NCBI GenBank assembly: GCA_050290185.1
Contig: JBNKHE010000004.1
Span: forward strand, 32,001 to 96,000
Length of the DNA stretch: 64,000 bases
Reading direction: 5' to 3'
Source of the DNA: Pontiella sp.
GTDB lineage: Bacteria > Verrucomicrobiota > Kiritimatiellia > Kiritimatiellales > Pontiellaceae
Shown here: in pieces, positions 1,424 to 5,505 of the stretch
Layout: each line of letters opens with the position of its first letter
Position numbering within the stretch: the first letter of the stretch is position 1
Notes under the pieces: model-generated
Told to the model about the DNA's origin: nothing
The model's database searches: none
The model's input: the letters and a program-made list of their open reading frames with translations, nothing else
Program-made: the position numbers and the translations under genes

Positions 1424-1906
1424 TTAGTAATAGATTATTTCCTCGTCTCGATATCTCCATTGACGAAAACAACCAAAGAGTGGTTCGCTGAATACTCTCC
1501 AGCCCCTAAGTTCATCAAACTTTCCTAAACCACCTATAATTAGCATTATCGGAGAGTCGATGAAGTTTTCCTCATAACGTGCTATATTTCGTAATGCTCG
1601 CTTATCTCGCCAGCTAAGATAGCTTGAGTTGTTGGGATGTGAGTGCCAATCACCTATGTAAGTGATTTCCCCATTGAATTGATTAAAATAATCCCCGACG
1701 CGGCTTTCGTCCGACACATAATCTGGCACGAAACCTAACCTGCCATGGATGGCATTTGGTCCAGGACCAAGAACATGTGTTATGACGACATCCGACTCAT
1801 CAGTCGCTAGGTATCCCATTAGTACCCCGCCACTTTCCTTAGGGGTTTTTACACAGGCATATTGGATCATTTTTTCATACTCAGATTTCGGGATCCATAT
1901 GCTCAT
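1424..1906 (-). CDS. JAB/MPN (Mov34) metallo-isopeptidase, CBASS Cap3-like
   Basis: ESGGVLMG, GPGPNA and YIGDWHSHP...LSWRD (JAMM E...HxH...S..D motif); likely ATG at 1906 (MSIWIPK) overlapping the end of the upstream E1 gene. Confidence 0.92.
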   Translation of the reverse strand: MSIWIPKSEYEKMIQYACVKTPKESGGVLMGYLATDESDVVITHVLGPGPNAIHGRLGFVPDYVSDESRVGDYFNQFNGEITYIGDWHSHPNNSSYLSWRDKRALRNIARYEENFIDSPIMLIIGGLGKFDELRGWRVFSEPLFGCFRQWRYRDEEIIYY

Positions 1907-3668
1907 AGGGTGCACAACTTTTGCATTTTTTAATCTTATCAAATGAATATCCGTTCCACTTTGGGAATAACCCGATTCCACTAGAGCGAAGGGATAAAAT
2001 ACCTATGTCATCAACGAGCGGGGGATATGCTCCAGCAATGCCCTCGCAGAGGGTAGAAACAGCCATACGAACTCCAGCCAATGACACTTCTTCAACGTCA
2101 AAGCTTGCTGCATGGAACGTAATATCGCCACAGCCCACGGGTTGTAATTTATCGCCGTTAGGATCAAAGGCTGGAAGCTCAATGTTATCCTCATTTTCAG
2201 GCTCATTCTCAGCTTTCTCCAGAGCTTGCCAAAAGCATAATAAACAACCTGTTTGAGCTGGTAGAACTCTTACTACATGCCCTCCCCAGCCCCCAGGACG
2301 AGAAGCAACCGTCACATAAGGTACCGATAACTCTTTGGCATAAAGAGATAGCATTTGATTAATTCCTCGTTCAGCCGTGGCGTCGAATACTAGATCCACA
2401 CCGTCAAGCATCCTAAAGAGACTTTCTTTTTGTCCAACCTCAGGAGTACCGAGCATAACTCTATCATCTTCTGTCCCAGATAAATGATGATCAATGCTTA
2501 CGTTCGTTAATGGGTAATTACTAGTAATATAATCAATAAGAGCCTTCACCTTACCCTTGCCCATTGCTTGAAGGCCAATTGGCCAGCGACAGATCGTACC
2601 AGCACTTATGAAATCCCCATCTAAGAGTCGAATCTCTCCTATTCCAGCCCTAGCAAAAGCAATGGCACTAGGTGCTCCAACACATCCCAAACCTATAACG
2701 GCTATCTTTTTTCCCCGCAGTGGATTTAGCTCTGGGATACGCTCAAAGATGTCGCACTCTCCAGCGTATTCAACTTTGATAGGGTTGATGATCAAATCCT
2801 GTTTGTTGATCTGAGCCACATAATAAAACAACCATCCATCACGTATCCCTCCTCTTGGGTTCTCCTCTGGAACACAAACAGCAAAAAGCGCATGCTTTTT
2901 CTTTTTGATCTCCAGTTGGAGCCACGAAAAAAGATCTGCGGACATAGCTCTGATACTTTCAACAAAAGCCTCAGAAGATGGCAGGCTAGGAAGACGGAAC
3001 CATGGACATTGCACACGTTTATACTCTTGGGATTTTATCCATTGGTGAATCATCGGGTTAATCGACACTCCATCAATGGGAACGTTTCCATTATCAAAAG
3101 CCACAAGAAGCCATCCCACGAAGGGGCGACCTTTTTGAATATGTTTATAATCACCGGCCACCGATAAGTGCAGAAGCCCTCTGTTTGTCGAATCTGGAAA
3201 TACCCAAGAGCTATCAAACATAATTTGCTGTCTGGCTCCCCTGTAAAACTCGGTCCATGGTTCTGCTTGATGATCTTCGCCTTGCAACCGTTCGTCTTCA
3301 TACTTTCGCGTAGCGACCCGCTCCCATTTTCCAAGCTGCTTAGTGATCAATCCCGCTGCTGTGTCGTTGGGTTGCCAGTGGTCAGTACCCCTTGCCAAAA
3401 GACATAACTCTCCCCCAGGACTATAGTGCCTGAGATCTTCGCCCAACCCTGGAACAATAACTGTGGGGCGTAAATATGGATATAAGTCAGGATACAGCAC
3501 GCTTCCAACACGCTCTTTGCCGAAAATGCTAACGCGAATATTTACCTTTAGCTTTCCTCTCTTTTTTTCAGCCTCATCGATTTCGGGATGAAGTCCGGCG
3601 CTCCGGAGAGCGCCGATCTCTTCTTCCTCGATCGCGGGGTATTCCATCCACCACGGACACGCCTTCAT
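1881..3668 (-). CDS. E2-E1 (ThiF/UBA) fusion protein, CBASS Cap2-like conjugating enzyme
   Basis: N-terminal E2-like YPDLYPYLRP...RH...GELCLL; C-terminal ThiF motifs KIAVIGLGCVG, RAGIGEIRLLDGD, DLVFDATA; Zn-type CLLC...CKSC pair; candidate catalytic Cys in PVGCGDITF. Confidence 0.9.
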   Translation of the reverse strand: MKACPWWMEYPAIEEEEIGALRSAGLHPEIDEAEKKRGKLKVNIRVSIFGKERVGSVLYPDLYPYLRPTVIVPGLGEDLRHYSPGGELCLLARGTDHWQPNDTAAGLITKQLGKWERVATRKYEDERLQGEDHQAEPWTEFYRGARQQIMFDSSWVFPDSTNRGLLHLSVAGDYKHIQKGRPFVGWLLVAFDNGNVPIDGVSINPMIHQWIKSQEYKRVQCPWFRLPSLPSSEAFVESIRAMSADLFSWLQLEIKKKKHALFAVCVPEENPRGGIRDGWLFYYVAQINKQDLIINPIKVEYAGECDIFERIPELNPLRGKKIAVIGLGCVGAPSAIAFARAGIGEIRLLDGDFISAGTICRWPIGLQAMGKGKVKALIDYITSNYPLTNVSIDHHLSGTEDDRVMLGTPEVGQKESLFRMLDGVDLVFDATAERGINQMLSLYAKELSVPYVTVASRPGGWGGHVVRVLPAQTGCLLCFWQALEKAENEPENEDNIELPAFDPNGDKLQPVGCGDITFHAASFDVEEVSLAGVRMAVSTLCEGIAGAYPPLVDDIGILSLRSSGIGLFPKWNGYSFDKIKKCKSCAPYEHMDPEI

Positions 3669-3821
3669 CTATCCCACATCTCTTCCACCACCGGGTCTTG
3701 GAGGTCTATTTGGTGGACGGTGTGGATTGGGTGGCGGTGTTGCCGGAGTCGCGGGATTACCCGGACCATTGGGATTTGCCGGTGTTGCCGGATTCCCTTT
3801 GCCTTTACCGTTATCATTCAT
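3669..3821 (-). CDS. 50-aa Pro/Gly/Asn-rich peptide ending in Gly (candidate conjugatable modifier)
   Basis: MNDNGKGKGNPATPANPNGPGNPATPATPPPNPHRPPNRPPRPGGGRDVG; AAGG upstream of ATG 3821; its TAG abuts the ATG of the E2-E1 gene (TAGATG); internal GNPATPA repeat. Confidence 0.7.
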   Translation of the reverse strand: MNDNGKGKGNPATPANPNGPGNPATPATPPPNPHRPPNRPPRPGGGRDVG

Positions 3822-3909
3822 AACTACTGTACCTTGCCGGGTTTTGGTTAACCCTGTTTTCCCCTCGGCCAGAAAACAGATCCTTGCGGTATTCGCAAAA
3901 CTGCACAGA

Positions 3910-4323
3910 CTATCCCGAAAGAGTAAATGATCTAAGACCCATGGCTTTATCCAGTATAGGATGAATCCATGGAAGACCTCGTGGCGTTTGGGCATCCAGA
4001 AAAAGATGAGAACCATGTGCGGCAGCCAACACCTTGATCATTCGGCCTTTTTTTGAGGATTTAAGCGATGAGTGGTGAGAGGCAATCAAACAAGCCATCC
4101 CCATTCCCAAACTATGGCATCCCTTCCGGTGCCACGAGCTGGTTGCTGGTTCCATTAGGTCGGCAGCCATGCCGCCTAATCCACCGACGACCACTGCGCA
4201 TATCAGTTCGCCTACATTCAATTCCTGTTGATCGCCATTTCGGATGCTCTGTAGCTGAATAGCCGCATCCAGCATGCCACCGATGGCCATTGCCCAGCCA
4301 ACATGTGTTTTTTTATTTGCCAT
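3910..4323 (-). CDS. YdjM-like membrane-associated metal-dependent hydrolase
   Basis: MANKKTH...ADLMEP...HRKGCHSL...SHLFLDAQTPRGLPW matches the family pattern (TH...PD...HRxxTHS...SHLLLD..T..G.P); GAAAGG RBS before ATG 4323. Confidence 0.82.
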   Translation of the reverse strand: MANKKTHVGWAMAIGGMLDAAIQLQSIRNGDQQELNVGELICAVVVGGLGGMAADLMEPATSSWHRKGCHSLGMGMACLIASHHSSLKSSKKGRMIKVLAAAHGSHLFLDAQTPRGLPWIHPILDKAMGLRSFTLSG

Positions 4324-4432: not shown

Positions 4433-5425
4433 TTACCGGCAGGAGAGCTCAGCCATGGCGTGGATTTCCTCCGCAACCAGCTGTTTTAGCTTTGCAGGCC
4501 GGATCACACGGGCGTGTTTGCCCATACCCAATACCCACTGAATGACATTGAAATACGGACGTTGTCCGCTGGCACTTACCCGGAAAGTTACTTCGATATC
4601 GCCGTTCTTCAACTCTCGAATCTTTTGCTTTGCATGCCACTGGCGGTCTTTCACTTCCAGAGACCATTGGTTACTGATACGAATACATACTTCTTTCATA
4701 TCGTCCATCGATGCGAATCCGCCGAAAGAGGATTCTACCAATTCCACCGGATCAAAATCATGCGGACGACGGAATGTTTCTCCGGTTTCGGTTACCTCAA
4801 GTATACGACCGATAGCGAACTGGCGAATTGCTTTATAATGGTGGTTGTAAGCAAAAACGTACCAATCACCATGGATGTTGGCGATGTGGTAAGGATCGAT
4901 GCGGTGGGTTCGCTTACCTGTAGCCCTCTTGCTTTGATAGCCCATTTCGATGGTGCGGCGTTGGAGAACGCTCTGGCATACCGATTCCCACAGTAAAGGA
5001 TCTACCGGAATCGCTGGAGGAGCTACGAAACTGAATTCACTTAGGATTTCTTCAGGATCAATACTGGTTTGTTCTCCGAGGGCTTCCGTCAGGTGAGTAT
5101 ATACCTGTTCCAGCTTATTGGTTATCGGCAGGTCTTTGTATTGGGCCAAGGCATGGCGAGCGATGAGAAGCGAAAATAAGTCGCCTTGTTTCAATGGAAT
5201 AGAGGGGATTGCCCAAGAGGGTTCTGTGTAGTAATAGCCTTTTTTGTTGCGGTCATATTCAAGAGGCGCGTTCCATCGGTCTTTCAGGAATGCAATGTCC
5301 CGTTTAATGGTTCTCTCCGCTACTTCCCAAGCGTGGGATAACTCAGAAATGGAGGGAAACTCTTTCGAACGGATGCGTCGGTCAATATCATACAGCCGTT
5401 CCATTTGTGTTTTACAACGACTCAC
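4433..5425 (-). CDS. WYL-domain transcriptional regulator (wHTH-WYL-WCX)
   Basis: wHTH ELSHAWEVAERTIKRDIAFL...GYYY; WYL region YQS...HRIDPYHI...WYVFAY...RQFAIGRI; C-terminal WVLGMG...VIRP; likely GTG start 5425 after GGAGA. Confidence 0.93.
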   Translation of the reverse strand: MSRCKTQMERLYDIDRRIRSKEFPSISELSHAWEVAERTIKRDIAFLKDRWNAPLEYDRNKKGYYYTEPSWAIPSIPLKQGDLFSLLIARHALAQYKDLPITNKLEQVYTHLTEALGEQTSIDPEEILSEFSFVAPPAIPVDPLLWESVCQSVLQRRTIEMGYQSKRATGKRTHRIDPYHIANIHGDWYVFAYNHHYKAIRQFAIGRILEVTETGETFRRPHDFDPVELVESSFGGFASMDDMKEVCIRISNQWSLEVKDRQWHAKQKIRELKNGDIEVTFRVSASGQRPYFNVIQWVLGMGKHARVIRPAKLKQLVAEEIHAMAELSCR

Positions 5426-5505
5426 CAGGGATTCTCCAGCAAACTTCAACCAAGTTCGTGTAAGTGACAGTTTTCCAGCCACACATCAAAGCAACAGGGT
5501 CACTC

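Follow-up and report, generated by a model that had tools for sequence, protein, structure and literature searches.

The stretch analysed here, which we call the window, comprises 64,000 nucleotides (nt) from a Pontiella sp. contig and contains a run of five consecutive minus-strand open reading frames (ORFs) that encode a WYL regulator, a YdjM-family protein, a short proline-rich peptide, a fusion of ubiquitin-conjugating (E2) and ubiquitin-activating (E1) domains and a JAB peptidase (Table 1). The peptide is the subject of this report, an earlier note made from the sequence alone having proposed that it is a minimal tag without a fold that is transferred by the E2-E1 protein and removed by the JAB protein. 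Its ORF runs from an ATG at 3821-3819 through 50 codons to a TAG at 3671-3669, and the product is MNDNGKGKGNPATPANPNGPGNPATPATPPPNPHRPPNRPPRPGGGRDVG. The features on which the proposal was built can all be read from the sequence: a ribosome-binding site, a repeat of GNPATPA (residues 9-15 and 21-27), a tail rich in Pro and Arg, and a terminal Gly (...GGGRDVG). The junction with the next gene was likewise seen directly, as the ATG of the E2-E1 ORF (3668) immediately follows the TAG of the peptide (...GTG GGA TAG ATG AAG...). Across this junction (3666-3674, minus strand) the two ORFs share a frame with one TAG between them, and read-through would fuse them. Read-through fusion was rejected as a general mechanism, the gap in most related loci being -1, -4, +2 or +4 nt; since most relatives are out of frame, the in-frame arrangement of the window is probably incidental.

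Table 1. Positions in the window of the peptide ORF, its partner genes and their candidate functional sites
Feature	Position	Strand	Basis
Small ORF, candidate modifier/substrate of the E2-E1 ligase	3669..3821	-	50 codons + TAG; sequence, conservation, pN/pS, model
Weak Shine-Dalgarno-like AAGG	3832..3835	-	10 nt 5' of the peptide ATG, read from sequence
Cap2-like E2-E1 fusion, 595 amino acids	1881..3668	-	ThiF 1.9e-16; PADLOC E1-E2 2e-31
C89 codon, candidate E2 catalytic Cys	3402..3404	-	Invariant in 19/19; predicted contacts nearby (94, 96, 99-101)
C513 codon, in GCGD, candidate E1 catalytic Cys by inference	2130..2132	-	At least 90% conserved
Cap3-like JAB/JAMM peptidase	1424..1981	-	Prok-JAB 2.7e-11; PADLOC JAB 9.8e-27
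YdjM-like membrane metal-hydrolase-family protein, 154 amino acids	3910..4374	-	PF04307, 3.7e-8
HTH-WYL-WCX regulator (CapW/BrxR type)	4433..5482	-	WYL 4.6e-15, WCX 9.2e-10; PADLOC WYL 2.2e-31

An ORF of this size is easily lost in annotation, and the earlier note had expected gene callers either to miss it or to extend it to a 115-residue form with a start at 4016. That form overlaps the 3' end of the YdjM-like gene in another frame, and in relatives stop codons stand just 5' of the Met of the short ORF (in locus L002, for example, the ORF is 53 codons from stop to stop), so the longer form was set aside as spurious, as the note had anticipated. The exact 50-residue and 115-residue products are both absent from a collection of 15 billion proteins, which fits gene callers missing the ORF. 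A profile of the peptide searched against a set of 5.8 billion proteins returned six matches, unnamed or labelled 'hypothetical protein', the 50-residue low-complexity query having little power; in that set the peptide is rarely called and never named.

The recurrence of the ORF was assessed upstream of homologous E2-E1 genes, 89 of which were found in the protein collection. A single-sequence scan of genome contigs gave no relatives, whereas profile-guided scans gave 14 genome loci and 80 metagenome loci, 94 in addition to the window. At least 150 nt of sequence upstream of the E2-E1 start was available in 79 loci and not in 16, and 68 distinct loci remained once 10 duplicates were removed. 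A Pro-rich ORF ending at the E2-E1 start was present in 78 of the 79, and R-x-V-G followed by 0-4 further residues in 75, across at least eight phyla; L014 and L055 fell below the proline threshold, with the motif present nonetheless. The earlier note had made its proposal depend on a Gly-terminated small ORF being conserved in homologous loci, and such an ORF is what these loci carry. Based on the recurrence in 78 of 79 loci and the coding-type substitution described below, the ORF lies far beyond chance. No residue follows the Gly in 57 loci, one follows it in two, two in 13 and four in three. In a single example, the Cyclobacteriaceae metagenome-assembled genome of L014 (368-676, plus strand), the ORF consists of two tandem units (...PPQTPDRPVG-R and ...PPRTPDREVG-R), an arrangement that resembles a polyubiquitin-style precursor needing cleavage after each Gly. 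The 18 loci with one to four residues after the Gly, together with this tandem, fit a processing step such as that of ubiquitin and BilA.

By record title, the carriers include Thermodesulfobacteriota, Lentisphaerota, Kiritimatiellae, Acidobacteriota, Planctomycetota, Bacteroidota and Pseudomonadota. All five plasmid loci, at 25-34% identity in E2-E1, carry the peptide (Hymenobacter sp. NBH84, Arthrobacter sp. FB24, Indioceanicola, Sphingobium fuliginis and Sinorhizobium fredii NGR234); one of these peptides is annotated as a 58-residue hypothetical protein and the plasmid gene tables, themselves incomplete, have no entry for the others. On plasmid p1 of Sphingobium fuliginis (L098) the deposited ThiF coding sequence starts approximately 300 nt 5' of the region of homology and crosses the peptide ORF in another frame, an extension that is an annotation artefact hiding the small gene. 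Cultured carriers are thus at hand in Hymenobacter sp. NBH84, Arthrobacter sp. FB24, Sinorhizobium fredii NGR234 and Sphingobium fuliginis. A Geotalea genome (L004) also carries the peptide, and E2-E1 homologues of Geomonas and Syntrophotalea species are known from proteins alone. A pattern scan of viral contigs gave no relative, from which absence from phages does not follow.

Selection on the ORF was analyzed within the window's clade, where 11 peptides share 47 codons free of gaps. At the first, second and third codon positions the minimum numbers of changes were 29, 19 and 109, respectively, and the proportions of nonsynonymous and synonymous differences over all pairs (pN and pS) were 0.18 and 0.71, a ratio of 0.25. 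These substitution patterns indicate that the peptide ORF evolves as coding sequence in this clade; its existence, its position and the selection on it are direct observations. The 57 distinct short peptides, the window's included, are 31-60 residues long and have clean Met starts. A logo of the last 14 residues of the 56 scored tails among them is nearly invariant at six positions, counted back from the Gly at 0: P(-13) in 54, P(-9) in 56, P(-7) in 55, R(-3) in 55, V(-1) in 56 and G(0) in 55. The conserved C-terminal module is P-P-x-P-P-[KR]-P-P-x-x-R-x-V-G. The N-terminal part is variable and of low complexity, with repeats of the GNPATPA type in the window and of the HPEHPEHP type elsewhere, and lysines occur in it in 48 of the 57 peptides. 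Overall, Pro makes up 35.9% of the peptides, Gly 10% and His 9%, and hydrophobic residues are nearly absent. A Pfam search gave no match for the peptide, and an AlphaFold2 prediction of the peptide alone (36 relatives in the alignment) contained no helix and no strand and had a predicted template modelling score (pTM) of 0.24. As the earlier note had supposed, the modelled peptide has no globular fold; it is probably of an extended polyproline type. On the plasmids of Hymenobacter (L095) and Arthrobacter FB24 (plasmid 1, L096) the locus lies amid metal-resistance genes (copper-binding, DUF305, HMA domain, cadmium transporter). A link between metal binding and the His-rich HPEHPEHP repeats is possible on account of these neighbours, which may equally be a coincidence of residence on resistance plasmids.

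The same composition and position could be explained if the ORF were a translational leader only, that is, a polyproline ORF that stalls or depends on elongation factor P (EF-P) and thereby gates the coupled E2-E1 gene, its peptide never being conjugated. Motifs of the PPP or PPG type stall ribosomes without EF-P, and PPP or PPG occurs in 51 of the 57 peptides, which have a median of six PP dipeptides. The N-terminal part is poorly conserved, as a leader would allow, and the coupling is tight: in 61 of the 68 loci stop and start overlap or adjoin, the E2-E1 start lying within -8 to +14 nt of the peptide stop, with -1 (18 loci) and -4 (14 loci) as the commonest gaps and 0 as that of the window. 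However, stalling needs no invariant terminal R-x-V-G, nor does it tolerate one to four dispensable residues after such a motif. In sister loci, moreover, full-size TIR, CD-NTase and DUF3892 proteins terminate in the same tail, and the peptide is predicted to bind the ligase where controls are not, as described below. We consider it improbable that the ORF is a leader and nothing else; the leader and modifier roles are compatible.

The enzyme encoded next to the peptide was characterized from an AlphaFold2 model of its 595 residues (19-row alignment; predicted local distance difference test score (pLDDT) 83, pTM 0.72). The top Foldseek match of this model was Enterobacter cloacae Cap2 (chain 7to3_A; E 6.5e-21, 602 columns, 15% identity), followed by BubCD, UBA5, ATG7, ThiF and MccB. 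By sequence alone the match to Cap2 was weak (3.7e-8) and confined to the Rossmann part, and the match to Prok-E2_B (0.015) was below the cut-off. The E2 domain contains YPDLYPY, H81, C89 and W98, and the E1 Rossmann domain contains GLGCVGAPS. Across the 19 family members aligned, there is no variation at H81, C89 and W98 in the E2 region, at D429, or within GLGCVGAPS apart from three positions, each of them conserved in at least 90%. The candidate E1 cysteine, C513, adjoins a flexible loop modelled with low confidence (pLDDT <50 at 506-512). The JAB motif E...HSHP...S..D is intact in the translation of the following ORF. The GTG start of that ORF creates a 101-nt overlap with the E2-E1 ORF (1881-1981, minus strand), and since the match to the PADLOC JAB models, which are those for CBASS, begins only at residue 26, the real start probably lies no earlier than the ATG at 1906. 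Sequence and fold matches mark the two proteins as a Cap2/Cap3-like pair. An E2-E1 gene is present in all 68 loci and a JAB gene is next in 65, the other three loci being cut off at that point. In five loci (L009, L010, L012, L034 and L051), of Planctomycetota type or in some cases metagenomic, E2-E1 reads as two ORFs of ~275-310 residues each with short overlaps, which may be separate genes for E2 plus linker and for E1 or may be contig frameshifts.

A co-fold of the peptide with E2-E1, which the earlier note had suggested as a check, was predicted from the E2-E1 alignment, the peptide alignment and ATP. The interaction prediction score from aligned errors (ipSAE) for the pair was 0.61 (0.61, 0.60 and 0.61 in the individual runs), and the best of three controls scored 0.00. 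Among solved complexes 116 of 157 attain the mark used for this score, and among mismatched pairs 2 of 215 do; these counts are rough for the present case given the custom alignments and the ATP ligand. The runs agreed in at least 96% of contacts, and the pLDDT of the partner was at least 53. In the predicted interface, residues 32-39, 42 and 47 of the peptide face residues 10, 12-13, 16, 64-65, 94, 96 and 99-101 of the E2 domain, the contacted stretches of the enzyme being the YPDLYPY segment and the residues just after C89. The models thus support the view that the conserved Pro motif docks beside C89 of the E2 domain. As such, the binding foreseen by the earlier note was borne out at the level of prediction, and the location was not, the peptide being placed on the E2 domain instead of at the adenylation pocket of the E1 domain.

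A different line of evidence comes from a minority of loci in which a long ORF, with an N-terminal domain identified by Pfam, takes the position of the peptide. ThsB_TIR proteins with the same tail stand directly before E2-E1 in L055, L056 and L087. In L094 the position is occupied by a SMODS/CD-NTase (cGAS/DncV-like nucleotidyltransferase) protein with the same tail, and the presence of a SAVED-HNH effector gene upstream of this CD-NTase makes the locus a complete type II CBASS (a system of antiphage signalling based on cyclic oligonucleotides). A DUF3892 protein with the same tail is encoded in L078, and L067 and L084 share its sequence pattern. Common to all of these is P-P-x-P-P-[KR]...R-x-V-G at the C-terminus. 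In the available text of published work, Cap2 conjugates the C-terminus of a CD-NTase. Because the same tail ends CD-NTase, ThsB-TIR and DUF3892 proteins, we read it as the substrate handle of the ligase, and the comparison of sequences marks the Pro-rich tail as the recognition element of this E2-E1 clade, most members of which encode the tail alone. The analogy drawn in the earlier note, which had pointed out that CBASS places its CD-NTase where the peptide stands, therefore holds. In L060 (6311-7252, plus strand), a tail-only locus, a SMODS gene lies ~560 nt downstream of the E2-E1 ORF.

The distribution of these forms was placed on a quick maximum-likelihood tree of 56 E2-E1 proteins (SH-like approximate likelihood ratio test (SH-aLRT) supports, midpoint root), from which duplicates and loci with an E2-E1 ORF of fewer than 520 residues (split or truncated) were left out. 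Tail-only loci account for 48 of the 56 rows and for long branches, the TIR and DUF3892 forms (three rows each) each form a single clade, the CD-NTase and tandem forms are single rows, and there are four state changes overall. It is conceivable that the peptide is a remnant, a tail left after loss of its cargo and serving as a pseudo-substrate or regulator (a competitive plug or a priming substrate), with the true substrate elsewhere. Tail-bearing enzymes do occur within this E2-E1 family, the rooting of the tree is not fixed, and the available text of Iyer et al. 2006 (PMC1779556) speculates that endogenous ThiS or MoaD serves operons that lack a ubiquitin-like protein (Ubl). A remnant is nevertheless hard to reconcile with purifying selection on the ORF, with clean Met starts and a narrow range of 31-60 residues in 57 distinct peptides, and with the tail-only state of 48 rows across long branches. 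In the window's own genome, furthermore, this ORF is the sole match to the peptide profile, and the single SMODS protein is without the tail. We regard a remnant as unlikely and prefer to view the peptide as a substrate in its own right.

The earlier note had also allowed for a precursor resembling ribosomally synthesised and post-translationally modified peptides (RiPPs). In the wider form of that idea, the E1 domain activates the C-terminus of the peptide for cyclisation, for nucleotide addition as in MccB/MccA, or for attachment of a lipid or small molecule as in ATG8-PE. The MccA/MccB and PaaP/PaaA systems share with the window a ThiF-type adenylating domain encoded beside the gene for a ribosomal peptide, MccB and PaaA are among the sequence or fold matches of the E1 domain, and the substrate here is a short peptide. 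These systems have no E2 domain and no JAB, have another terminal residue or product, and carry export and immunity genes; MccB has an N-terminal peptide-clamp domain, and the terminal residue of MccA is Asn. In contrast, the N-terminal domain of the window's enzyme resembles an E2 and carries an invariant Cys and His, Cap2 rather than MccB is the closest structural match over the full length, the terminal residue of the peptide is Gly, an isopeptidase-type JAB is encoded in 65 of the 68 loci, and no conserved exporter, immunity or tailoring gene was found across the 68. A likeness to lipid attachment does exist, in that Cap2 resembles ATG7/ATG3, which attach ATG8 to lipid (Ledvina preprint, in the text available). 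Given the conserved E2 Cys, the JAB and the lack of conserved exporter or tailoring genes, this alternative is the weaker one, and we think a RiPP-like or other non-protein product has little chance of being correct.

The genes around the module were surveyed for partners that recur. The YdjM-like gene, rejected as an obligatory partner, is not among the recurrent gene clusters of the 68 loci and appears from this comparison to be an accessory and no conserved part of the module; a second YdjM match lies near L078. Among the flanking ORFs of the window, Pfam and PADLOC identified only the YdjM-like protein, the WYL regulator and a DUF4349/LysM protein, and no nucleotide-activated effector; the translations of the operon ORFs, searched with Pfam, contained no SMODS domain or nucleotidyltransferase. 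The module is single-copy in this genome, which is 95.5% complete and gave no match to ThsB_TIR. A separate SMODS/CD-NTase gene lies on another contig of the genome (G000:C7:125661-126158, L104), overlapping a downstream ORF, in a locus that resembles a small type I CBASS; its product ends ...YGVRFPS.

Elsewhere, an opposite-strand HTH_3-type regulator is present in 22 of the 68 loci. A Pfam search of 30 loci identified eight with HTH_3 and Peptidase_M78 (the CapH/CapP type), one with WYL as in the window and one with LexA; single-linkage BLAST clusters merged the window's WYL protein with HTH+M78 proteins, and the cluster-based WYL count was not used. DUF2188 is encoded in 13 of the 68 loci between the regulator and the peptide (for example L022:3535-3810 and L001:3547-3804), often ending a few bases from the peptide ORF, and with 13 loci it was rejected as an obligatory partner. 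In the available text of Lau et al. 2022 (preprint) and of bioRxiv 10.64898/2025.12.03.692087, DUF2188 is a putative defence component, and according to the former, as far as available, CapH/CapP responds to DNA damage and is found beside DUF2188, DUF3892 and '6a' ubiquitin-related operons. Neighbours at other loci include GmrSD, HipA, RES-Xre, Schlafen/AlbA_2, integrases and transposases. The module was not found in the 40 relatives searched (24 of the same genus, many incomplete), on which basis we describe it as accessory, like defence islands.

Several known systems resemble the module in part. It shares with type II CBASS the E2-E1 (Cap2) and JAB (Cap3) pair and its gene order, a substrate gene directly 5' of E2-E1 with overlapping or abutting stop and start, a substrate with a flexible tail whose last residue is Gly or Ala, and regulators of the CapW or CapH/CapP type, and one member of the family, L094, is a true CBASS with this tail. 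In a canonical Klebsiella plasmid CBASS the CD-NTase gene occupies the same position with a 4-nt overlap, and its product ends ...AGVVGTSQGA, which is not Pro-rich. The window differs in that its substrate is without an enzyme domain, its operon has no CD-NTase or effector, and the sequence similarity of its E2-E1 to the solved Cap2 is weak. Its E2 domain also keeps H81 (eight residues before C89), YPxxYP and W98, whereas canonical Cap2 is without these classical E2 features (His, YPxxYP, Trp) according to the available text of the Ledvina preprint. With neither CD-NTase nor effector found in the window, the module is not a member of CBASS. Thoeris operons with Cap2/Cap3 contain TIR proteins with a Gly-containing C-terminal tail (bioRxiv 10.64898/2025.12.03.692087, in the text available), and L055, L056 and L087 match them as ThsB-TIR proteins with the tail beside Cap2/Cap3-like genes; the substrates described there bear a TIR domain, whereas the window's peptide and 56 further distinct ones consist of nothing but the tail.

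Operons of E2, E1 and JAB without a Ubl were designated types 6a and 6b by Iyer, Burroughs and Aravind (2006, PMC1779556), whose guess in the available text is that they use endogenous ThiS or MoaD, and what we could consult of the later literature still calls such families uncharacterised. The window shares with 6a and 6b a mobile, patchily distributed E2+E1+JAB module without a beta-grasp Ubl, and the 6a/6b papers, in the parts available, name no modifier. One 6a operon, listed by Lau et al. (2022 preprint, available text), comprises CapP, CapH, a hypothetical protein, a 'predicted metallohydrolase' and an E2-E1-JAB protein. In the window the E2-E1 ORF stops at 1881 and the JAB is a separate ORF (1424-1981), whereas in 6a they form a single polypeptide; because the JAB is unfused, the module is not of type 6a. 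The window's YdjM neighbour (PF04307) belongs to a metal-hydrolase family other than the metallo-beta-lactamase type.

The Bil/Bub systems have in common with the window a self-contained modifier, E1, E2 and peptidase and no separate effector, and their peptidase, as far as the available descriptions go, both pre-processes the modifier and cleaves conjugates; the window's peptide differs from their modifier in having no fold and, as a family, ~36% Pro. Beta-grasp modifiers in general are likewise encoded beside E1, E2 and JAB with an exposed or exposable C-terminal Gly, and the same absence of helix and strand, low pTM (0.24), Pro content and lack of a Pfam match set the peptide apart from them. 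A comparison for disorder is offered by Pup, a small, intrinsically disordered protein modifier that ends in GGQ or GGE and is ligated through a side-chain carboxylate by the glutamine-synthetase-like PafA/Dop. The window's peptide is similarly small and disordered, with the difference that it terminates in RDVG and has a ThiF-type E1, an E2 and a JAB as partners. No description of a tail-only or peptide substrate of Cap2-like enzymes was found in full-text searches of the literature, and it is the tail-only substrate that is new relative to known conjugation of the Cap2/Cap3 type.

Taken together, we favour the reading, at a probability of roughly 65%, that the ORF encodes a cognate, fold-less, Gly-terminated modifier of the adjacent E2-E1 which the JAB peptidase trims and removes. 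None of the alternatives explains as well an invariant, extendable R-x-V-G tail that is shared with Cap2-type substrates. By analogy to Cap2/CD-NTase and to ubiquitin-type cascades, the C-terminal module P-P-x-P-P-[KR]-P-P-x-x-R-x-V-G would serve as both docking and activation handle. The Pro motif would dock on the E2 domain next to C89, the terminal Gly would be adenylated by the E1 domain, and the peptide, bound as a thioester, would be handed from the E1 Cys (candidate C513) on to C89 of the E2 domain. Its final acceptors would be either amino groups on target proteins or N-terminal lysines in further copies of the peptide. The JAB peptidase would expose the Gly where extra residues follow it and would reverse conjugates. 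Peptide, E2-E1 and JAB would be translationally coupled, and they stand under a WYL (CapW-type) regulator in the window and under HTH+M78 (CapH/CapP-type) regulators elsewhere; given regulators of these kinds, the tag would be made on DNA damage or phage attack. Since there is no conserved effector, the module would act through the modification as such, in the manner of Bil systems.

A number of points weigh against this reading and account for our caution. Translation, adenylation, thioester formation, conjugation and JAB cleavage, that is, every chemical step, are matters that we infer, as is the biological role. In the complex model G50 was not placed with confidence in the adenylation site of the E1 domain, and as a Cap2-CD-NTase complex has been solved (7to3), part of the score could stem from the predictor's exposure to that structure, yet the identity to that chain is only 15%. 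The RBS of the window's peptide ORF is weak. The motif deviates in three loci (L010 ...RRDVA, L025 ...DRPAG and L093 ...DGQVGAR), and in one locus, L046, no peptide is seen. Two of the 57 short peptides have no lysine, which argues against obligatory formation of self-chains. The midpoint-rooted quick tree gives no direction, loss of cargo versus gain of cargo, and no conserved effector occurs among the recurrent genes of the 68 loci.

A broader proposal, to which we give somewhat less than an even chance, is that the peptides form a widespread, unrecognised class of modifier: a polyproline tag of 31-60 residues, ligated by E1/E2 and removed by JAB, that may be the missing modifier of orphan E2-E1-JAB operons. 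The module would then be a damage- or phage-induced effector that decorates phage or host proteins or builds peptide chains via N-terminal lysines, and the tail would be a portable handle borrowed or shed by CD-NTase, TIR and DUF3892 enzymes. The prevailing view is that ubiquitin-type conjugation depends on a modifier with a beta-grasp fold, or on an entire enzyme in the case of CBASS; should a bare, Pro-rich tail of 50 residues suffice, the minimal requirement for recognition by E1/E2 would be a short linear motif. Such a tag would be compact and genetically encodable as a means of ligation. If the proposal is true, it could answer the question of what Ubl-less E2-E1-JAB operons act on, as raised by Iyer et al. 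2006, and CBASS, Thoeris and the orphan E2-E1-JAB modules would be linked through one substrate handle.

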